DNA from: a bacterium
GTDB lineage: Bacteria > Bacteroidota > Rhodothermia > Rhodothermales > UBA10348
Assembly (NCBI GenBank): GCA_013204185.1
Contig: JABMOI010000025.1
Location: forward strand, 14,213 to 78,212
Length of the DNA stretch: 64,000 nt
Direction of reading: 5' to 3'
Shown here: positions 1,787-62,373 of the stretch, piece after piece
Layout: the number at the start of each line of letters is the position of its first letter
Numbering within the stretch: the first letter of the stretch is position 1
Translations under genes and position numbers: made by a program
The notes under the pieces: generated by a model
The model's input: only the letters and a program-made list of their open reading frames with translations
What the model was told of the DNA's origin: nothing
Databases searched by the model: none

Positions 1787-4700
1787 GACTGTTGAATCGA
1801 TTTTTCTGATATGAAGTCAGGGTATTGTGCAAAAACGATCATGAGGTCTTGTAGTTCAAAATGGCGCGCATGGCCAGAAACAAGGCCTCCCCATTGCTCT
1901 AGAGGAGCGAACGAAAACTGCTTTCCGTACGCCGCCATTTCTTCCCCGAAGGATTCCATTTCGTTAACCGTTTGTCGGTAGGTCAGGTCCTGCCAGCGTT
2001 CACGTTCTCCCTCCAGAACCTCAATAAGCGCGGCATCGATAGGCCTGGAAGGTGCGATTGCCGCAGTCGCTTGCTGCTCTGCGGCGGCGTCAATCTCTAG
2101 CGTGTCGAAAGGCAGGAACGCTGACAGCGCGGAAACCAACGCATCTTGAGTGATGGGCTTTGGCACAAAAGCGTCCGTCAGTTTCATGAATTGGGTTGCC
2201 TCTTCTCCCATTACAGAGGCCGAAAATCCAATGACAGGAAACGCATTTCGGCGGCCGGATTGAACTAATTCTTGTATCACACCGAGCCCGTTAAGAATGG
2301 GCATGTGCAAGTCGAGAAGCAGCAGATCAATCTGTTCGCGCGCGATGATGTTCAACACATCTTTTCCCGTTTCAGCTTCGACCACCCTAAGCCCGCAAGC
2401 AGTTAGCATTTCCTTTACCAACTCCCTGTTCAATGTAATATCGTCCGCAATCAGAACGGAAGAACCCTGGAATTGAATGCGTCCAGCGGCAATAGAAGCT
2501 TTTGGCTTTTGAATGGCTTCTGAAATAAACTCAACCCGGGGTATTCGGACAATGAAAACAGATCCCTTTCCTGGGGTGCTGTCTAAATAGATGCGTCCCC
2601 CCATCAGCTCAACAAGCTTACTGGTAATAGCCAGGCCGAGACCGGTACCGCCATAGGACTGTTGAGACTGGCCTTTTACCTGATCGAAAGCCCCAAAAAT
2701 GTGCGCTTTTTGATCCTCAGGGATTCCAATACCCGAATCTTCAACCCGAAATAATACCGTTGTCTGCCCAGGTCCATCCGATCCAAAGCGTTCGGCACGA
2801 ACTTCCACTCGAACCCCACCTTGATCCGTAAACTTAAGGGCGTTTCCAATCAGATTGATCAGGATTTGGCGAATCCGCGTTTCGTCCATAACCAGCGTCG
2901 GAGGAATCGAAGAAGGGGCAAAACATTCAAATGATATGTGCTTGGCTTCGGCCCGTTGGTTAAACATGAGCGGCATTTCTTCGACAAGCCCCCTCAGGTT
3001 CATGGCCTGCGGAACGATGTCCATTTTGCCAGCTTCGACCTTTGATAGATCCAAAATGTCGTTGATTAGGGTCAATAGAGACCGGCTCGATGCCTGAATG
3101 TGCTGAACATACTTTTTCGTTTCAGCGTCGGTGCTTTTGCGCGCAAGGAGGTCCGTGAACCCGATAATTGCGTTCATTGGCGTCCGGATCTCATGGCTCA
3201 TATTGGCCAAGAACCGGCTTTTAGCATGCGTAGCCTCTTCGGCCTGGACCGCAAAAGAAGAAGCTTGTTCGCTACTGGCCTCCAGGGCCTCATTGGTTTT
3301 TGCCAAGAGCCGCTTCTGCCGATCGACCTCCCGTTGCTGGATTTCAAGGTTTCGGTTTTGAGAAGCCATTAGCTCCGCCTGCTCCTCGGACCGCATTTTG
3401 CTCTTTCTAAGCTCTTCGTGCCGAATTTCCAGCTGGCGCCGCTGGAGCATAATTTCTTGATTAGAAGCTTCCAGCTGCTCGTTATGGGTCTGCAGCAACA
3501 TGCGCTGCTCTTCGACAGCGCGGGTTTGAGCGTTTAGGTTAGATGCGAGGCGGTCGTTGCTTTCTTCGAGCTGTCCAATATGATATTTGGCGAGGCTTTT
3601 ACCCGCTAAAAAGACTGAAACAGCAAAAAGAATAGCATAAATGGCAAATGCCCAGAGCGTTCTAAACCAAGGCGGTCGAATAATGACTAGCGCCTTTGAA
3701 ACAGGGCCAACCCGCCCCGTGCCTGACATGGCCCTCACCTCGAACGCATAAGATCCCTCTTGAAGTCCTGAAAAGCGTGCGGACGTGTTAAGGGACCAGT
3801 CAGACCAATCTGGACTGAGTCCGGCCAACCTAAATTGATGACGAATGTCCGCAATTTCCTCGAAAAAAGGTGTCGCAAAGACCATAAACAGGCTGTTTTC
3901 GTCGATTTCCAACTCAAATACTGGGGGCTCAACCTTTCCCGAGGTGCCGCCGCCAAATAACATCCGCTTGGGGGTCTCAATCGAGCGAATCAGGGTCAGA
4001 CTGGGTTCAGAAAGGACTTCTGAAATCGAAGACGTATATCGAAAGAGACCGCGATCGGTCGCGATCCAGCACCCATCTCCTTTTGTATCGCACTCGATTT
4101 GAGCGATGCGTGAATCTGAAAGCTGGTGGAGTGACTCAATCACTTCAAGACGTCTTCCAGTTCCTTCCTCGGGAGGAATAACACCCGCGTAATCTCCGGT
4201 AAACAACCAGACCCGATTGTCTGGCGTCTCGTGTATGTAGCGAATATCCGAGACGCTCATGGCTCCGGTCAGTCCAAGACTATTTCCTGGGCTAAACCGG
4301 TTCGTTTCCGGCTGATACGCATACATTCCAGATCGGGCAGCAAATACGACACGCTCGCCCATGCGAAGGGGCCTTGTAAGACCCACTGGAAGCCCCGCTC
4401 GTTCGTCGTAGATCGTTACGTGACCGGAAAGCGAATCCGCCTCAGGTTTTGCGATGCGCGCCACTCCAGTAGGGGCCAAGCTTGCCCACAATTCACCGCC
4501 TAGCGTTTCAGCTAGGCTAACCACGTGAGAAATATCTTGTTGTTGACGGGCTCCAACAGCCCATCGATTGGTCACAGGATTCAGTTCTAGCTCCGAAAGA
4601 CCGCCAGCATGGCCCACGTAGACTACGTTTTCCCGAGTTTGTGACGCGAGCAGCGTCCGGATTGGAAATCCGATGGAGAGGGTGTAGCGAGTGCCAGCGC

Positions 4701-6072
4701 CTTGGTTCATTAGAACAAGAATATCATCCCCGCTGCCAACCAGCAAGCCGCCCGGAACCTGAAGTAAGGCCCGAACGGGTACGTCGAGCCCTGGAAGTGC
4801 CGAGAATGAAGAGGGGAGCTCTCCGGCAGGCGTGTTAGACAGGAAGAGGCCTCTATCGGTACCCACGTAAAGCCCCGTTGGGGTTTGGGCTAACGCAGAA
4901 ATAGCTCCCGAAATCCCAGCGGATGCAGGCGGAGCAGAAACAGAATTATTGAGTCCAACGCGCGCCACTCCGTCTTCTGTGGCTAGCCACACACGGCCCC
5001 TGGAGTCCTCCGTGATGCCGTTGATCGTGCCGAAAGGAATGCCATCTCGGTACGTTAAAAAGCGGGCAGGCTGCCCTGGTGATACGAGAGCCAATCCTCC
5101 TGACTCAAGACCTAAGGCCAGTATGCCCGAGGAGAGCAATTGGGTAGATCGGACTTTTTTGCCTTGAAGCGAAGCAACACTGAGGGAATCCCAGGATGCA
5201 AGTCTGTTTCTTCGGTACGTATAGTATCCACCCGCATCGGTTATGAGCAGCGCAGTACTATCGTTTAGTGAGGTTGCGTGAATCAACTCATCTCTGGCTA
5301 ACTGGGCCCCAGAGGACACGTCCAAAAATCGTCCAGATACAAACCGAGTCAGGCCACGTCCCCAAAGACTAACGAACAGAGTGTCTTCATTCGAAAAGGA
5401 AGCCTGGATGGGAGCCCCTGGGATGTGAGTTAAAACCGTGTCCTTTGTAGCTTCGTAAATGCGACTTGACGTCGTGAAAAAAGAAGATGCACCTGTTCTG
5501 AGCACCTGCCCCACTTCGTTAAATCGATTTCGTTCTAACGATTGCTCCGGCAAAAACGAAGAAAATGTAGGTCGATACAAGGAGTCGGTAGCCACGTATC
5601 CGATATCTCCGGAGGCACCAACTAAGATTCGGTTGGACGAATCGAGCGCAAGCTGAGTTGGAGTACGACGCCCAGGGAGCGTGATGAGCCGCCACGTAAC
5701 GCCATCAAACTCAAGGATGCCCTCTTGGTTGGCGACATACATCAAGCCGTCAGCCGACTGCACAATTCCAAGGTTGTTTGGGTTCTGGCCGTATTCAACC
5801 GGGCTGTACCGATGGACGATGGGGTATCCACCAGATTGGGCCCATGCCACATGTGTGCCCGCGGTGCTAAATGCGCCAAGGACTAAAGCCAACAAAATGA
5901 CACCAGGGAGGTACACACCTCTTCGGGCCGCCGTAAAAACGGCGGCTGAAGGAGACGCAAACCAAGGTCTATTTTGTAAATGGATCAAATCTGATATCAA
6001 TTGGCGAGGGTTTGAACTATTGGGAACGAAAAAAACGCTGAAAATGGTGTAAAACGCGCCAATTTCTGCCAA
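1783..6072 (-). CDS. Large hybrid sensor histidine kinase: periplasmic beta-propeller/Y_Y_Y-type sensor, TM, coiled coil, HisKA, HATPase, REC, HPt
   Basis: An N-terminal hydrophobic anchor is followed by about 700 aa of propeller-like repeats and a Y_Y_Y-like module as in Bacteroidetes hybrid sensors. Then come a TM helix (WAFAIYAILFAVSVFLAG), a long coiled coil, H-box SHEIRTPMNAIIGF, GGTGLGLAITSKLVELMGG, a receiver (VLIADDITLN ... DLLLLDLHMPILNG) and a C-terminal helical HPt-like tail. The exact start is uncertain. Confidence 0.85.
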   Translation of the reverse strand: MAEIGAFYTIFSVFFVPNSSNPRQLISDLIHLQNRPWFASPSAAVFTAARRGVYLPGVILLALVLGAFSTAGTHVAWAQSGGYPIVHRYSPVEYGQNPNNLGIVQSADGLMYVANQEGILEFDGVTWRLITLPGRRTPTQLALDSSNRILVGASGDIGYVATDSLYRPTFSSFLPEQSLERNRFNEVGQVLRTGASSFFTTSSRIYEATKDTVLTHIPGAPIQASFSNEDTLFVSLWGRGLTRFVSGRFLDVSSGAQLARDELIHATSLNDSTALLITDAGGYYTYRRNRLASWDSLSVASLQGKKVRSTQLLSSGILALGLESGGLALVSPGQPARFLTYRDGIPFGTINGITEDSRGRVWLATEDGVARVGLNNSVSAPPASAGISGAISALAQTPTGLYVGTDRGLFLSNTPAGELPSSFSALPGLDVPVRALLQVPGGLLVGSGDDILVLMNQGAGTRYTLSIGFPIRTLLASQTRENVVYVGHAGGLSELELNPVTNRWAVGARQQQDISHVVSLAETLGGELWASLAPTGVARIAKPEADSLSGHVTIYDERAGLPVGLTRPLRMGERVVFAARSGMYAYQPETNRFSPGNSLGLTGAMSVSDIRYIHETPDNRVWLFTGDYAGVIPPEEGTGRRLEVIESLHQLSDSRIAQIECDTKGDGCWIATDRGLFRYTSSISEVLSEPSLTLIRSIETPKRMLFGGGTSGKVEPPVFELEIDENSLFMVFATPFFEEIADIRHQFRLAGLSPDWSDWSLNTSARFSGLQEGSYAFEVRAMSGTGRVGPVSKALVIIRPPWFRTLWAFAIYAILFAVSVFLAGKSLAKYHIGQLEESNDRLASNLNAQTRAVEEQRMLLQTHNEQLEASNQEIMLQRRQLEIRHEELRKSKMRSEEQAELMASQNRNLEIQQREVDRQKRLLAKTNEALEASSEQASSFAVQAEEATHAKSRFLANMSHEIRTPMNAIIGFTDLLARKSTDAETKKYVQHIQASSRSLLTLINDILDLSKVEAGKMDIVPQAMNLRGLVEEMPLMFNQRAEAKHISFECFAPSSIPPTLVMDETRIRQILINLIGNALKFTDQGGVRVEVRAERFGSDGPGQTTVLFRVEDSGIGIPEDQKAHIFGAFDQVKGQSQQSYGGTGLGLAITSKLVELMGGRIYLDSTPGKGSVFIVRIPRVEFISEAIQKPKASIAAGRIQFQGSSVLIADDITLNRELVKEMLTACGLRVVEAETGKDVLNIIAREQIDLLLLDLHMPILNGLGVIQELVQSGRRNAFPVIGFSASVMGEEATQFMKLTDAFVPKPITQDALVSALSAFLPFDTLEIDAAAEQQATAAIAPSRPIDAALIEVLEGERERWQDLTYRQTVNEMESFGEEMAAYGKQFSFAPLEQWGGLVSGHARHFELQDLMIVFAQYPDFISEKSIQQS

Positions 6073-56280: not shown

Positions 56281-56799
56281 CTAAGGAGCTCCAAAAAGAT
56301 TCTTAACCGTCTTCATGGACAGGTACAGATGAAGGCTGTCGTCTAAAAGAGCTGAAAAACCATACTGCAAGTAGAACTGCTTGGCCGCTTCTGTCTTTGC
56401 ATCGACTTCAACAGCGTAAACACCCACTTTTACGGATACCTTGAGAGACTTCTTGAGGGCATCAATCAGCAACAAGCCTCCGATTCCCTGCCCTCGCGCT
56501 TCCAAACTTGTTGCAAGCCGACCAATTCGCACAACTGGTACGGGATAGCGAGGGAGACGACCTGCTTCTTCGTCCGGCAAATCGTGGCGCGCCACCTGGC
56601 CGTTTGAAATGCAATAATATCCAAGAATGGTGGACTCACCTGGGCGAACCGCCACGTAGGTAACGCTCAGGCCTTTCTTAAAATTCTGCTTTGCGTGCTT
56701 GTGTAAAAACTGATTTAAGGCTGCGTCGCCGCAATCAAACTCTGACCTGATATGTTTGTCAGATAGTTGAACGATTTCAATGCGTTCCCTCTCAGTCAT
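56281..56799 (-). CDS. GNAT-family acetyltransferase toxin (TacT/KacT-like) of a type II toxin-antitoxin pair
   Basis: FDCGDAALNQFLHKHAKQN, LPRYPVPVVRIGRLATSLEARGQGIGGLLLIDAL and AKQFYLQYGF are the hallmarks of DUF1778-associated GNAT toxins. It overlaps the antitoxin gene by 8 nt. Confidence 0.85.
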   Translation of the reverse strand: MTERERIEIVQLSDKHIRSEFDCGDAALNQFLHKHAKQNFKKGLSVTYVAVRPGESTILGYYCISNGQVARHDLPDEEAGRLPRYPVPVVRIGRLATSLEARGQGIGGLLLIDALKKSLKVSVKVGVYAVEVDAKTEAAKQFYLQYGFSALLDDSLHLYLSMKTVKNLFGAP

Positions 56800-57115
56800 G
56801 CGATCCAGAGACCTGTTCTTGGTACTGCTCTAACGCTTTGGTCAACTTTGAGTTGGGTGCAGAATCCGAGGTTAGAATTGCATTAAACGTTTCCCAGTCA
56901 CGGAGCGTGAGTTCAGTTGCGTTATGCTCTTGGATCACTTTTAGCGATTCGCTCATAAGTGTAGAAAGGACAAATGAGGAAACGGATTCGCCCATCAAGG
57001 CGGCTGCCTTCTCAATAATTGATTTTTGAGAAGCCGTAGATCGTAGGTCTAGACGAGCGTCTTTTGGGGCGTCGTCAGTCGGTAAGGAGCTGCTTTTATT
57101 GGCTATGGAAGACAT
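56792..57115 (-). CDS. DUF1778 (TacA/KacA-like) ribbon-helix-helix antitoxin
   Basis: ARLDLRSTASQKSIIEKAAALMGESVSSFVLSTLMSESLKVIQE matches the RHH and helical pattern of DUF1778 antitoxins. It is 107 aa and lies upstream of, and overlapping, the GNAT gene. Confidence 0.8.
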   Translation of the reverse strand: MSSIANKSSSLPTDDAPKDARLDLRSTASQKSIIEKAAALMGESVSSFVLSTLMSESLKVIQEHNATELTLRDWETFNAILTSDSAPNSKLTKALEQYQEQVSGSHD

Positions 57116-57267: not shown

Positions 57268-59841
57268 TTATTCCGACTTGAGCACTTCTGCTGCGTTGAT
57301 ATTGGCAATCTTACGAGATTGAGCAAATACAGCGCTTGCAGCGGTTGAGAATAACAAAATAAAGGCAACGGCAATCGGTAGCGGTCCAAGTGGCATATTC
57401 TGGGTATCGAACATAGAAAGAAGCCCATTTATGGCTGCAACACAAAGGACGGATGAGATGGCTGCCGCTACTCCCAGCAGCAGGATAAATTTCTTGTTGA
57501 GTTCGAAGGTTAGGTGAGATGCGCTGGCCCCGAGTGATTTCCTCACGGCCATTTCTTTCATTCGTGTCACAGCATTTTGGGACGCCAAGCCGAATAACCC
57601 CATGCACGCAATGAGAAGCGACAGAAAGGCAATGGTCATGAACATGGCGTTCATCTTCCCAAGCGATTCGTAGCTGATATCGAACACTTCGTTTTGGTAG
57701 AAATAGGTGAGCACGGCTCCTGGAAATACCTTTTCCCAGCCAGCTTTTACAATGTCTATATCAAAACGTGAAGGCACTTTGAGCGTCGCAACGGCGTAGT
57801 TTGCCGGATCCGATTTCGTGTAAACGATGGGAAAGTCAGCCCCCACAGGATTAGTAAGGACATTGTCTATTAATCCAATCACGGTCACGGACCGGTTGTC
57901 AAGCCGAAAAGATTGACCGATGGCTTCTTCCCAGCCTGACTCCTCAGCAAAGACCTTGTTCACCAGAACGGATGTACTGTCTAGTCCGGCAAGTTCAGGG
58001 ACAAATTCTCTGCCCTCAAGGGTGGGAATATTCATGGATTCGAAATAGCGATCTCCAACCGATATGAGACGCACAGTCTGTTCGGTGCCGTCCACATTTA
58101 CTCTGCCCGAGGAGCCACCTTGTCCAATATGGTGTGCTGCACCGGCAATCAATTCGATCTGCGGGTATTGGCCGAGCTCCCCTTCAAGCAATTTGAATTG
58201 ATCGTTTCCGGTCAAATTGACAACTAATGTGTTTTCTGCCTGATAGCCCCAATCGACATTGAGCAAATGTTGATTGTTCATCCCCATGTAAACCGAAACC
58301 ACAACCGTTATGAAGGCGATCGCGAACTGAACGGTCATGAGGCTCCTAGTAAGCCACGCCGACCGGCTGATTTTGCTCTGCCCCCGCAAGATGGCGGAGG
58401 GCTCAAAGGACGAAATGTAAAAAGCAGGATATGCACCTGAAATGAAGGCAACGCCGACCAGCATGGCAAAGAGAAAGACAAACAGAGGAAGGTCGACGGA
58501 CTTGGCGATATCAATTTGTTCAACAAACAGGTTGTTGAAAAGAGGCACGAGCACGGTGTAGGCTAAGGCTACCCCAACTAATAAGGAGAGCCCACACAGG
58601 ATGATGTTCTCTGCCAAGAATTGAGTAGCCAATTGTTTTCGACTTCCACCCACCACTTTGCGGATACCAATTTCTTTCAATCTGCGGAGCGCGCTGGCGA
58701 GCGTGATGTTCACATAGTTGATGCATGAAAGAGCCAGCATGAAGAGCGGTATTAGAATAAATACCGCCATAAAGGGCCATTCTGTAGCATGAAAGCTTCG
58801 ATTTCGGACTAAAAAAGCCGTTACTCCTTTGTGGCGAAGGTTTTCTAAGTCAAAAGAAGTGATTTGCCATCCCTCGTTGGCTGCATTTTGAACTGGAATA
58901 AAGCTCGCCATTCCTTCCAGAATGGGTTCTATTTCCGAGCCGGGGGTTAGCATAAGAAACGTCCCGTCCACGAACTGCCCCCAATCGTTTCGGGCGGTAT
59001 TCGACATGGCGTTCGGGTTGTTCGCCGATATCATCACATCAAATCGGAAGCCAGAATTGGTAGGAAATTTCTCGGCGATTCCCGCTACTACGAACGCCTG
59101 ACGGTCCGTACCATCAAAGGAAAGGGTGATGACTTCGCCCAAGGGATCGCTTTTGCCAAAATACTTTTCGGCAGTCCGCTCACTAATGATGACGTTGGAC
59201 TCATTGTCCAGAGCTGATTTTTGTCCCAACCGGAGCGGAAACGTGAACATGTTGAAAAAACCTGGATCAGCAAACACGATGGATTCTGAAATGGTTTTAC
59301 TTCCGTATTCGAATAGGGCGCGGCGTTGGATAATGCGAACAGACTCTTCAACCTGAGGGAAGGTCTCTTTCAAAACGGGTCCCAGAGGAGTGGGCGATGT
59401 CCCCCATTTCGGAAGGCCACCTGCTTCTGGCACTTCATGGGTAACCATGTAGATCCGGTTCCCATTTTCATGAAATCGGTCGACGGTTGCGAAGTCTTTG
59501 ACGAATAAGAAAACAGCGATACATGCCGCTAAAGCGACTGACAATCCAAATAGGTTGATGGCTGAGGAGACTTTGTTTTTTAGCAAGTTGCGCCGGCCGA
59601 CCAGCAAATAATTTTTCCACATAACAAAGCTCCAGTACAGTTTGGCAAGGATAATTTCAGGGATTAAGCGCAGGAGTTGCATCGCGTACCAACGCTTGGC
59701 AGCAAAACGCCCGTGGTCGCGTGCAATGGAACTGAAGTACTCTTCGTAGTCCCCAGCAGGAGTTTGGGAATCGTCGGGCAGCAACTGATTCAAAAGAAAC
59801 GAGGCCCAACGCGGCGGTGGAGTGTGTTTCGGTTGACTCAT
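57268..59841 (-). CDS. FtsX/MacB-like ABC transporter permease with duplicated permease domains (ADOP-type)
   Basis: The N-terminal cytoplasmic segment (PPRWASFLLNQLLPDD ... RWYAMQLLRL) is followed by two copies of TM + large periplasmic domain + 3 TM. FtsX motifs are RRLKEIGIRKVVGGSRKQL and TRMKEMAVRKSLGASASHL. Confidence 0.85.
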   Translation of the reverse strand: MSQPKHTPPPRWASFLLNQLLPDDSQTPAGDYEEYFSSIARDHGRFAAKRWYAMQLLRLIPEIILAKLYWSFVMWKNYLLVGRRNLLKNKVSSAINLFGLSVALAACIAVFLFVKDFATVDRFHENGNRIYMVTHEVPEAGGLPKWGTSPTPLGPVLKETFPQVEESVRIIQRRALFEYGSKTISESIVFADPGFFNMFTFPLRLGQKSALDNESNVIISERTAEKYFGKSDPLGEVITLSFDGTDRQAFVVAGIAEKFPTNSGFRFDVMISANNPNAMSNTARNDWGQFVDGTFLMLTPGSEIEPILEGMASFIPVQNAANEGWQITSFDLENLRHKGVTAFLVRNRSFHATEWPFMAVFILIPLFMLALSCINYVNITLASALRRLKEIGIRKVVGGSRKQLATQFLAENIILCGLSLLVGVALAYTVLVPLFNNLFVEQIDIAKSVDLPLFVFLFAMLVGVAFISGAYPAFYISSFEPSAILRGQSKISRSAWLTRSLMTVQFAIAFITVVVSVYMGMNNQHLLNVDWGYQAENTLVVNLTGNDQFKLLEGELGQYPQIELIAGAAHHIGQGGSSGRVNVDGTEQTVRLISVGDRYFESMNIPTLEGREFVPELAGLDSTSVLVNKVFAEESGWEEAIGQSFRLDNRSVTVIGLIDNVLTNPVGADFPIVYTKSDPANYAVATLKVPSRFDIDIVKAGWEKVFPGAVLTYFYQNEVFDISYESLGKMNAMFMTIAFLSLLIACMGLFGLASQNAVTRMKEMAVRKSLGASASHLTFELNKKFILLLGVAAAISSVLCVAAINGLLSMFDTQNMPLGPLPIAVAFILLFSTAASAVFAQSRKIANINAAEVLKSE

Positions 59842-60170
59842 TTTAAGCCTCGCTCCAACGCGTTAACTGAAATGCCGTCCCACATGGACTGCCCGACCGC
59901 ATTAATTTCTAGTAGCGCCCGTCTGCCACCCGAAGTCAGGGAATAAATTCGTTTGGGCCTACCGCCCCGTTCCGGAATTGGTTCGGATAATTCCGATTTG
60001 ATCAGGTTCTGTTTTACCAGCCGCTCTAGCGGAGCATACACTGAACTCAAGGACCAATCTCTTCCCGTGATCTCTTGAAGGCGCCCTTGAATGGGCAACG
60101 TGTAGGCTTCCTCTTGCAATTTCCAGATCGCAAGTAGGATGTATTCTTCGCTTCGAGTTAGGTGATTCAT
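59838..60170 (-). CDS. PadR family transcriptional regulator
   Basis: Winged-helix sequence EEYILLAIWKLQEEAYTLPIQGRLQEITGRDWSLSSVYAPLERLVKQNLIKSE ... RPKRIYSLTSGGRRAL. The stop overlaps the permease start (ATGA). Confidence 0.85.
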   Translation of the reverse strand: MNHLTRSEEYILLAIWKLQEEAYTLPIQGRLQEITGRDWSLSSVYAPLERLVKQNLIKSELSEPIPERGGRPKRIYSLTSGGRRALLEINAVGQSMWDGISVNALERGLK

Positions 60171-60333: not shown

Positions 60334-61938
60334 TTAAGAGCCTTTCTTCCGACCACCACCAGCGAAAAAGTCACCACCCACATTTATGTTACCGGTTGCT
60401 GTAAACGTATGTCCTGTGCCGGTAACGTTTAACTCAATAGATGACGTTCCTGGTTCGAAACCGGTAACAGCCTCACTCAGCGCCTCTGCTGCTTGTTGGA
60501 CTGCAGCTGAACTCAGCGGCTGGAGTTTTTTTAGATCACCCATAAAGAGCTTCAGATAAGCCTCGCTATTGGGTTTCTCTTCCAAATCCTCCAGACTATA
60601 CATCACAGAAGTAGCACCCTCAAGGCCTTTAATGGAGTCCTTGAGCTTCTCGAACGCGTCCGTGATATCTGGCTTTTTGTCTCCTGAAAGAGCTAACGCC
60701 ATAAGCATTCCGAGGTCCTCTTCTTTGCCAGGCGCCCACACTTGGTCCGATACGGTGTTCGAGGACCCACTGGAAGGCGGATTTTTAGGCTCTTCCAAAT
60801 TAGAATTAGCTTCCGTAACTGGAAGCCGCTCTATCCCAAATAATCTACCATTGGGAGTCCGCATGAACAGAACGGGAGTAGCCCACTCTACATCTCTTGA
60901 GTTTCCGTGGAAAATTTCAATCCTTCCGGCAGAGGCTGCCTTGTCCACTTTGCCGGACCGGAAAAGCTCGGAGTAGAATCCTTTCGAAAATTGAACCGCA
61001 GCATCGACCGAAATCACATATTGCATCGCAATAACGGCTGGAAGTCCGCTTTTTACGAGGGCTGTAGCAACGCCTTGGAACGGATCATAGTCTGTATTGA
61101 AGGTGGTCTCTGCCGTTTTGCAAGCATTTAGAACTACCATTCGCATCGTGGCGTGGTTACGAAGCAACGTCCCCAGTTCTAACCCATCAATCTTTCGGAC
61201 TGCGTGTGATCCATCGTCACCTTCCAGATAAAGAAACCCCTTTCCTGAGCCGCGCATGAATGAACCATGCCCTAAATAGTGGAACGAGTGATAGTCCTTC
61301 TGACTCAACACTTCGCGAATAGAGGAGACGCTGGCGTTGCTGACAAAGGTGACTTCAATATCCTTCCGCTCCGCGAAAAGGGAATGAAACTGGCCTAGTT
61401 CTTTTTCAACGAGCGAATGGTCAATGTCGAATGTCCCTGTGGGATTGGCCACCGCAACCAAGATGCGCAATGGAGAATGAATCTGATTCACCACGGTCGG
61501 GGCGTCCACATCAACATGTCTTACAATCCAACACCTAGCCTGAGTAGATAAAGGACGATTTTTATGCTTGGCCAGCAATTCCCACGGGATGGCAGAAAGT
61601 CTCGCAGTGTTCTCGTCATCCAAATTCATAACGAGTCTAATTCTGACCCCGTCCACATCTGGCTGATCGTCAATATCCAATGTGCGGTCGAACAAACTCA
61701 CCAAATCGTCCCGAACCAATGCGTCAAAGAGAATTTCCCCTATATGTTCTTCGCTACGCAACGAACTATCATCTGAAAGAAGACTTTTGGTTCGTCGGAG
61801 TAATTTGCCAGCTTCTTCCGGCTCAAATGGCAGCGAAAACGTACTTCTGCTTACGCCTCGTTCCGAATTGGCATCAACAGAAAACACTCCTGGGGACTCC
61901 AATCGAAATTCAATTCGGAGTTCGCGTTCCTTTACCAT
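60334..61938 (-). CDS. CHAT-domain (caspase-like) protease with a C-terminal helical module and a Gly/Asn/Thr-rich terminal motif
   Basis: The CHAT core has catalytic contexts YHSFHYLGHGSF (His) and MRMVVLNACKTAE (Cys). There is no signal peptide or TM. The C-terminal ~120 aa is paralogous to the upstream 138-aa protein. The ATG at 61938 lies 19 nt after the upstream stop (the alternative TTG at 61950 lies 7 nt after). Confidence 0.85.
   Translation of the reverse strand: MVKERELRIEFRLESPGVFSVDANSERGVSRSTFSLPFEPEEAGKLLRRTKSLLSDDSSLRSEEHIGEILFDALVRDDLVSLFDRTLDIDDQPDVDGVRIRLVMNLDDENTARLSAIPWELLAKHKNRPLSTQARCWIVRHVDVDAPTVVNQIHSPLRILVAVANPTGTFDIDHSLVEKELGQFHSLFAERKDIEVTFVSNASVSSIREVLSQKDYHSFHYLGHGSFMRGSGKGFLYLEGDDGSHAVRKIDGLELGTLLRNHATMRMVVLNACKTAETTFNTDYDPFQGVATALVKSGLPAVIAMQYVISVDAAVQFSKGFYSELFRSGKVDKAASAGRIEIFHGNSRDVEWATPVLFMRTPNGRLFGIERLPVTEANSNLEEPKNPPSSGSSNTVSDQVWAPGKEEDLGMLMALALSGDKKPDITDAFEKLKDSIKGLEGATSVMYSLEDLEEKPNSEAYLKLFMGDLKKLQPLSSAAVQQAAEALSEAVTGFEPGTSSIELNVTGTGHTFTATGNINVGGDFFAGGGRKKGS
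60358..60438 (-). other. Coding segment for the shared terminal motif IELNVTGTGHTFTATGNINVGGDFFAG (CHAT protein)
   Basis: A hand alignment to the motif at 61978-62058 gives 18 of 27 identical residues. The DNA differs at many synonymous positions. Confidence 0.8.
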
Positions 61939-61956
61939 GGTGTTTAACAAGGTGTG

Positions 61957-62373
61957 CTAATCCGAAGAGTTTGAGTTGCCGCCGTGAAAGTCGCCCCCAA
62001 TATTTATGTCGCCGGTGGCGGTAAACATGTGATTCGAACCAGAGACATTGAGTTTAATGTTGGTAGGTGCCCCTTCACTGAATCCGCCTGGCTGTTTCTT
62101 CAATTCGGCAATCAACTCGGCTAAGGCCGTCAATATTTCTGGGTCCTGGTCCATGTCACTGTCCCGGACGTTTTCTGCCAGCACTGCCTTCAAGTCCTCA
62201 TTTTCCGGTTCTGCCTCTAAGCGTTCCAACTTCCTGCCGGCGCTACCAAATCTCTTCGTAATCATCTCTTTTACTTTCGAGTAGGCAGCCTTCAGAGTGG
62301 CCGTGGTAGCGTCCGCCGTAACGGTGACGGCGGCCTTTACCAAGGCATCAATGATTTGTTGTTGAGGATCCAT
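61957..62373 (-). CDS. Small helical protein (138 aa) ending in the same terminal motif as the CHAT protease; family unknown
   Basis: Ala/Thr-rich amphipathic N-terminus (IIDALVKAAVTVTADATTATLKAAY), an acidic helical middle, a Gly/Pro linker, then IKLNVSGSNHMFTATGDINIGGDFHGG. It lies immediately upstream of the CHAT gene on the same strand. Confidence 0.7.
   Translation of the reverse strand: MDPQQQIIDALVKAAVTVTADATTATLKAAYSKVKEMITKRFGSAGRKLERLEAEPENEDLKAVLAENVRDSDMDQDPEILTALAELIAELKKQPGGFSEGAPTNIKLNVSGSNHMFTATGDINIGGDFHGGNSNSSD
61978..62058 (-). other. Coding segment for the shared terminal motif IKLNVSGSNHMFTATGDINIGGDFHGG (small protein)
   Basis: See the partner segment at 60358-60438. 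Confidence 0.8.

Follow-up and report, generated by a model that had tools for sequence, protein, structure and literature searches.

Among the closest described systems to the locus examined here are the pairs of Bell proteins and nucleotide-binding oligomerization domain-like receptors (NLRs) that carry BASS motifs. In these pairs a small helical Bell-type protein ends in a G/N-rich motif of approximately 25 amino acids (aa), the motif recurs in the adjacent gene product with pair-specific similarity, and one family of heads is combined with several classes of tails (Dyrka et al. 2020, 10.1101/2020.01.06.895854). BASS is defined operationally as a motif common to the Bell C-terminus and the NLR N-terminus in adjacent genes (10.1101/2020.01.06.895854). 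We analyzed a 64-kb stretch of bacterial DNA (contig JABMOI010000025.1; the whole stretch is called the window below) with two adjacent minus-strand genes that resemble such pairs in all of these respects and encode a small helical protein and a CHAT protease. Unlike in the Bell/NLR pairs, where the partner is an NB-ARC or NACHT protein with an N-terminal motif, the small protein is here paired with a CHAT protease whose motif is C-terminal, and no NLR was found in the 69 kb covered. A sensor with the motif at its N-terminus was looked for in these 69 kb (the window plus the 5 kb beyond it, L001) and did not appear, in agreement with the initial annotation, which saw no NLR or STAND NTPase; this sets the locus apart from the canonical BASS type.

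Sensor-to-effector amyloid signaling is established in fungi and animals and was recently shown for one bacterial antiphage system, Bab/Agp. This amyloid-signaling abortive-infection pair of E. coli, in which Bab consists of a Bell-like head and a C-terminal BASS11, has been demonstrated experimentally (Ibarlosa et al. 2024, 10.1101/2024.11.07.622273). The window locus is likewise a two-gene unit in which the neighboring product carries the same motif. However, the motif of Agp, a TPR-GreA/B-C-PIN sensor, lies at the N-terminus, whereas the window partner is a protease without a recognizable sensor domain and with its motif at the C-terminus, and the motif sequence differs. In every described case the motif is located at the N-terminus of an NTPase or another sensor. 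BASS motifs C-terminal to CHAT have already been reported (10.1101/2020.01.06.895854; 10.1101/2024.11.07.622273), and BASS11 is reported also with CHAT, TIR, and EAD7 (10.1101/2024.11.07.622273). With these reports and Bab/Agp known, the initial statement that the pairing is not a described system was too strong. The homotypic adaptor logic that couples CHAT-type effectors to partners is also shared with EADs and bacterial Death-like adaptors (Kaur et al. 2020/2021, PMC7159879, PMC8195603), but the window pair has no NTPase, and its shared element is a short beta-type tail and not a helical adaptor. As in the operons of bacterial gasdermins and proteases, a caspase-like or CHAT protease gene lies beside a gene for a small putative pore-former; here, the gasdermin fold is absent and coupling apparently occurs by a shared terminal motif instead of a cleavable inhibitory peptide. 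In the fungal HET-S/NWD2 and PNT1/HELLP/SBP systems, a pore-forming HeLo or Hell effector is controlled by a C-terminal prion-like motif. The fungal three-gene cluster resembles the window pair in that a second, enzymatic effector, there a lipase, bears the motif at its C-terminus. Fungal clusters of this kind, to our knowledge, always include an NLR. The enzyme in the window differs in being a caspase-like protease, with a partial Bell module in two lineages.

We estimate a probability of roughly 50% that the two window genes form a cell-death or conflict module in which the small Bell protein and the CHAT protease are coupled by a shared BASS-type C-terminal tail. The pair is best regarded as a rare variant, without the usual NLR sensor, of an already described kind of bacterial cell-suicide and immune signaling, neither canonical nor categorically new. 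The features of the two genes are as follows.

61957-62373, minus strand: small-protein gene, an open reading frame of 138 aa, gene-called on two independent contigs; predicted Bell/HetE-N head and C-terminal BASS-type tail.
62083-62373, minus strand: predicted Bell/HetE-N helical head of the small protein, aa 1 to ~97.
61987-62058, minus strand: tail motif of the small protein, IKLNVSGSNHMFTATGDINIGGDF, aa 106-129, located by tblastn and aligned to the class (a) tails of the family.
60334-61950, minus strand: CHAT protease gene, an open reading frame of 538 aa from the TTG at 61950, or 534 aa from the ATG at 61938.
60877-61692, minus strand: CHAT caspase-like protease domain, aa 87-358, PF12770.
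61267-61269 and 61120-61122, minus strand: codons of the catalytic His228 and Cys277, respectively.
60439-60717, minus strand: partial Bell/HetE-N-like helical module in the CHAT protein, aa 412 to ~504, with a degenerate N-terminal helix.
60367-60438, minus strand: tail motif of the CHAT protein, IELNVTGTGHTFTATGNINVGGDF, aa 505-528.

The genes are separated by 6 nucleotides (nt) if the CHAT protein starts at the TTG or by 18 nt if it starts at the ATG, which was the start chosen by gene callers; the spacing first annotated, 7-19 nt, was close enough. A BLASTP comparison of the two products gave 37% identity over 107 aa (E = 1e-12), aligning aa 30-132 of the small protein with aa 432-531 of the CHAT protein. 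The similarity thus reaches beyond the tail into the helical part, as had been noted before. It is unevenly distributed: the helical parts are 27% identical, against 71% for the tails, which match at 17 of 24 residues or, over a longer stretch, at 18 of 29 (an earlier hand alignment had given 18 of 27). Of the 17 identical tail residues, 10 are encoded by different codons, and 48 of 72 nucleotides match; the tail similarity, which goes far beyond chance, has therefore been maintained at the protein level. On the same codon usage we rejected an assembly artefact or a recent gene conversion as its source, and the initial annotation had likewise seen an old duplication and no assembly artefact. 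The tail of the small protein has the G/N/Q-rich character and the patterned hydrophobic residues of a C-terminal BASS motif: the 28-residue stretch containing it holds 6 G, 4 N, 2 T, and 2 S and no P. In the AlphaFold2 (AF2) monomer model it is disordered, with a predicted local distance difference test score (pLDDT) below 50.

The helical module belongs to a large family. A search profile was built from the small protein and from two CHAT C-termini, that of the window protein and that of a homologue with 38% identity (P0003), and an exhaustive hidden Markov model (HMM) search with it returned 554 representative proteins at E <= 1e-3. Nearly all are stand-alone proteins of 115-145 aa with a common head, MDPITTAIVAAL...DAYxxLKxLIxRKFG...LExKPDSxxRxxxLxEEV...DPE...PGG, behind which stand C-terminal G/N/Q/T-rich tails of about 20-25 aa in several distinct classes. 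The Pfam family PF20701 (HetE-N) was matched by 71 of 92 such proteins, with a best E of 4.6e-13 and several scores above the 25-bit gathering score, and it was present on all matches listed from a second search except the window small protein and its closest orthologue, P0375. A family HMM made from 91 relatives, with the window sequences excluded, matched the small protein over its full length at 92 bits and the C-terminus of the CHAT protein at 55 bits (aa 419-522 to profile positions 18-122). Direct scans were less productive: the module and the tail had no direct match in Pfam, NCBIfam, or PADLOC, and a word-based homology search with the small protein alone recovered only itself. Matches to Herpes_Helicase and SpoIIIAB lay below threshold and were treated as noise. 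The HMM searches proposed for both proteins thus reached the CHAT domain directly (PF12770) and Bell/HetE-N by way of the family profile, with the small protein itself below the Pfam level.

From these homologies we assign the helical module to HetE-N (PF20701) and equate it with the "Bell" cell-death domain. HetE-N corresponds to the Bell/Bab-type head because, in a published Bell-derived BASS data set, the tail of A0A1E2WYC2 closely resembles that of the family member P0188, and because of the work of Ibarlosa et al. (10.1101/2024.11.07.622273). The domain was first noted as an "uncharacterized effector domain" (Kaur et al., PMC8195603). The small protein begins MDPQQQIIDALVKAAV and shows the conserved M-[DE]-P... 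start (the "MEPIS" region) and the hydrophobic or amphipathic helix of the family; its best 17-residue hydropathy window is 1.26, within the family 5-95% range of 1.05-1.99. Its AF2 model has five helices over aa 3-93 with a pLDDT of about 90 (aa 1-95), in keeping with an all-alpha head of ~100 aa. By these sequence features the small protein appears to be an ordinary Bell+BASS protein, with a putative membrane-targeting, cell-death activity by analogy to its relatives. The initial annotation had described it as a free-standing copy of the C-terminal module of the protease; this has to be turned around, since the module itself is Bell/HetE-N. At E <= 1, scans of Pfam and NCBIfam gave neither protein a match to EAD, EACC, trypco, or bDLD models, and the EAD/EACC-type adaptor put forward earlier as an alternative found no support there. 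A gasdermin identity was rejected for the small protein, which belongs to HetE-N. Several small HetE-N proteins carry the names "disulfide oxidoreductase YuzD" or "phage terminase small subunit" given by the Joint Genome Institute (JGI), which look like annotation errors; one is named "HetE-like protein" by the same source.

The CHAT domain of the second protein was identified by Pfam PF12770 (aa 87-358, E = 2.4e-28), and SAVED_CHAT, on the protease domain, was the sole PADLOC match. The His (HYLGHGSF, H228) and the Cys (LNACK, C277) do not vary across 43 aligned relatives. The catalytic dyad is thus intact, and the open reading frames agree with the 138-aa protein and ~534-aa CHAT protease with a His/Cys dyad that were first annotated. 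AF2 modeled the protein with a pLDDT above 90 over aa 1-370; in the full model the C-terminal module has low confidence, and it is uninformative on docking of the module onto the protease. The conserved Bell N-terminus is not seen in the CHAT protein, in which the corresponding region is internal and degenerate: the remnant DLGMLMALALSG has a hydropathy of 0.54, against a family median of 1.56. Judging from its sequence, the CHAT protein is best described as bearing a partial Bell+BASS module, and in one lineage the tail alone. Other relatives of this CHAT end in SAVED, FGE-sulfatase, TPR, beta-propeller, or STAND regions.

Two further CHAT loci were noted. At L009 (5665-11805) the gene for a CHAT relative with a fused SIR2-like C-terminal region (701 aa) precedes that for a STAND-WD40 protein of 1313 aa, a different conflict-system arrangement of the same CHAT family. 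The CHAT relative P0042 at L006 (4894-7926) has another kind of short G/N tail, SIGGIQAANVNIAQRDLHI, and its neighbors, a zinc-ribbon/transmembrane protein and a protein of >371 aa without known function, have no matching motif.

CHAT/Bell pairs with matching tails were found in two other divergent lineages, a recurrence that the initial annotation had suggested looking for. In the first (L003/L007) the CHAT protein is 38% identical to that of the window and carries the same module at its C-terminus; the gene fragment before it ends ALIAALKDAPGGFEGNMNINVKGDGNLFSGGDMNIGGDVNM and the CHAT protein itself ends NINVEGTGNLFSGGDMNIGGDVTMG. In the second (L004/L005/L008) the CHAT protein is 40% identical and lacks the helical module, with just a linker and the tail LQQNVQGNKNIIIGQGDLNAGNISFD in its place, and it is followed by a 139-aa HetE-N protein ending IRQNVSGDKNIIIGQGDLNAGDISFG. 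The gene order at L004 is reversed relative to the window, and unrelated opposite-strand genes flank the pair on both sides. The helical module on the protease is therefore optional, being present in two lineages. A fourth locus (L090) encodes the orthologue P0375, 56% identical to the small protein.

Within the three pairs the tails are 61%, 81%, and 71% identical, the last value being that of the window pair, and between loci the identity is at most 50%. For each of the six CHAT/Bell tails the best match was its own partner, and the observed pairing ranked 1 of 120 permutations. Heads are 27% identical, compared with 71-91% for tails, and in the three pairs the codons differ at more than half of the identical tail residues (10/17, 12/20, and 12/20). 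All pairs thus have the tail in common, and within each of them it co-varies. These data bear on the possibility of a decaying remnant, left over from an NLR/Bell/CHAT cluster that lost its sensor and no longer working. Such decay would fit the rarity of the pair, the missing sensor nearby, and the degenerate Bell-like module embedded in the CHAT protein, but both open reading frames are intact, the dyad is conserved, the pair has been kept across lineages whose CHAT domains are only 38-40% identical, and the tails stay similar through many synonymous changes. We consider a remnant very improbable.

The tails of the window pair fall in the class [IV]xQxVxGxxN[IV]FxxTGD[IV]x[IV] of the family, and this class also occurs in canonical pairs. 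At L091 a Bell protein with the tail HIQQNVTGNQNIFSGTGDIHIGG is followed after 13 nt by a NACHT protein beginning MATPEIRQTVTGDHNIFTATGDIRISY, and L094 has the same arrangement of Bell C-terminus and NACHT N-terminus. The class is BASS-type because it is common to Bell C-termini and adjacent NACHT N-termini. A sorting signal, of the type IX secretion system (T9SS) or any other kind, was rejected since the motif is found also at the N-termini of cytoplasmic NACHT proteins, and the initial annotation had already argued against a classical one. A string search of the published BASS data sets gave one similar entry, C06_s022; the general tail pattern resembles cluster C02 (N-x-[IV]-S-G...G/R-D), and in these data the class is not clearly one of BASS1-10. 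The BASS/Bell-type amyloid signaling motif that was first proposed is thus supported by homology and by gene context (canonical pairs, recurrence, and pair-specific tails), whereas amyloid formation itself is a step that we infer.

Two family members combine these parts in other ways. P0242 (144 aa) bears the motif at both ends: after an N-terminal IIQNVSIQGEGNIVVGKGDVIIN come an NLR-like stretch (WIKGVLEKSVHEAALLE), the C-terminal half of a Bell head, and a second tail. This protein might be a real adaptor, or else a chimera produced by gene fusion or by assembly. P0263 (518 aa) is an "all-in-one" protein in which a HetE-N head and a short G-rich stretch are fused to a NACHT NTPase.

The shared tail could alternatively be a homotypic docking peptide and not an amyloid motif. 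It would then bring the Bell protein to the CHAT protease, which would either cleave and thereby activate it, as in gasdermin systems, or restrain it by constant degradation, following the logic of a toxin-antitoxin system. A protease beside a small putative pore-former is indeed the logic of bacterial gasdermins (general knowledge and the discussion in 10.1101/2024.11.07.622273), the dyad is intact, and tail co-variation is equally expected of a docking peptide. However, the same motif class joins Bell proteins to NACHT N-termini where there is no protease, so that serving as a protease site is not its general role; the composition and length of the tail suit BASS motifs, and a cleavage site is not evident. 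Weighing these points, we regard docking as quite unlikely.

A different arrangement is suggested by L096 (31-1063), where a TIR_2-HetE-N-tail protein (P0207) is followed after 31 nt by a gene beginning MPDIEQRVSGQGNIFSATGDVQVN, at which the contig stops. The enzyme-Bell-tail layout of P0207 is that of the window CHAT protein, and this locus shows that enzyme-Bell-BASS fusions can have canonical partners with an N-terminal motif. By extension, the pore-former and the protease of the window could both be downstream effectors of an unlinked sensor (an NLR, TGP, or similar) with an N-terminal motif, as in the fungal NLR/HELLP/SBP clusters. A C-terminal motif marks the effector position in all described systems (10.1101/2020.01.06.895854), and relatives of this CHAT are often fused to STAND NTPases or encoded beside them. 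Against such a sensor, a tblastn search of the 64-kb window and the 5 kb beyond gave no third tail motif (next match E ~0.2 or worse), the partners in canonical systems nearly always lie side by side, unrelated genes enclose the pair at L004, and the strong pair-specific matching of the tails suggests that the two linked products interact with each other. An unlinked sensor seems unlikely to us, though it deserves consideration.

If the two proteins are indeed coupled as a cell-death or conflict module by the shared tail, the following sequence of events can be proposed. The small protein, a probable relative of Bab and of fungal HeLo/Hell, would act as a membrane-targeting executioner, and the G/N/T-rich C-terminal motif of ~24 residues would couple it to the protease. 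In resting monomers the tail would be unstructured. Upon a trigger, it would stack with the partner tail into a templated cross-beta (amyloid-like) assembly, which would convert and activate the Bell protein and concentrate the CHAT protease, leading to its activation by proximity. Membrane damage and a role in phage defense or abortive infection may follow; the direction of activation could be either way. The CHAT protein would occupy the NLR or sensor position beside the Bell/BASS gene, so that the module seems to need no NTPase sensor next to it. The strictest form of this proposal, an NLR-free module in which the CHAT protease and the Bell pore-former template each other via the shared prion-like motif, with the protease either the trigger or itself switched on by amyloid-induced proximity, is possible and we hold it only tentatively.

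Several observations weigh against the coupled-module interpretation. The AF2 monomer models leave both tails at low confidence, and tail-tail interaction, like amyloid formation by the motif, is our deduction. The window proteins themselves fall below the Pfam HetE-N threshold, and their membership is transitive. No solved relative of the head was found, either by Foldseek of the AF2 model against the PDB (best E = 3) or by a profile search of PDB sequences. The pair is rare: among 80 CHAT loci from representative genomes, none had a Bell neighbor or a G/N tail, and a metagenome scan with the CHAT subfamily returned only the known contigs and an unrelated CHAT-SIR2/STAND locus. The surroundings of the pair are not an obvious defense island. 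Finally, described systems place the motif at the N-terminus of the upstream partner and here both motifs are C-terminal, the typical position of effectors; taken together with the TIR-Bell-tail protein and its N-terminal-motif partner, this makes a sensor elsewhere in the genome possible.

The mechanism class is already known, and an amyloid pair of a protease and a pore-former without a sensor would be a notable extension of it, in a compact cassette of ~2 kb. If the pair works alone, an amyloid motif is able to link one effector straight to another, or the input can come from a protease, and caspase-type proteolysis and HeLo/MLKL-type membrane attack would be joined by a prion-like switch in bacteria. 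Should the NLR-free form hold true, bacteria would possess their own version of prion-like caspase activation (ASC/caspase-1, RHIM/caspase-8), and the pair would amount to a minimal cell-suicide switch of two proteins. The locus also shows the Bell/BASS toolkit in a genome that bears a T9SS and is Bacteroidota- or Rhodothermota-like, beyond the filamentous "multicellular" phyla.

The genes around the pair were also characterized. A Ser/Thr kinase of 827 aa with a transmembrane segment and TPR repeats is encoded on the plus strand from ~62611 to the window end, divergent from the small-protein gene; it runs off the window and is complete in L001 at 2249-4732. The same divergent kinase adjoins the small-protein orthologue in L090. 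We rejected it as a sensor of the pair, given that it has no tail motif and that close relatedness accounts for its presence in L090 as well. Immediately downstream of the CHAT gene, 57268-60170 (minus strand) encodes a PadR regulator and then an 857-aa MacB_PCD/FtsX permease. These genes are probably a separate operon from the CHAT/Bell pair, and they are not beside the pair of L004. A type II toxin-antitoxin pair lies at 56281-57115 (minus strand), ~3 kb downstream of the CHAT gene, and consists of a TacA1-like antitoxin (PF08681, E = 3.3e-20) overlapping a GNAT acetyltransferase toxin.

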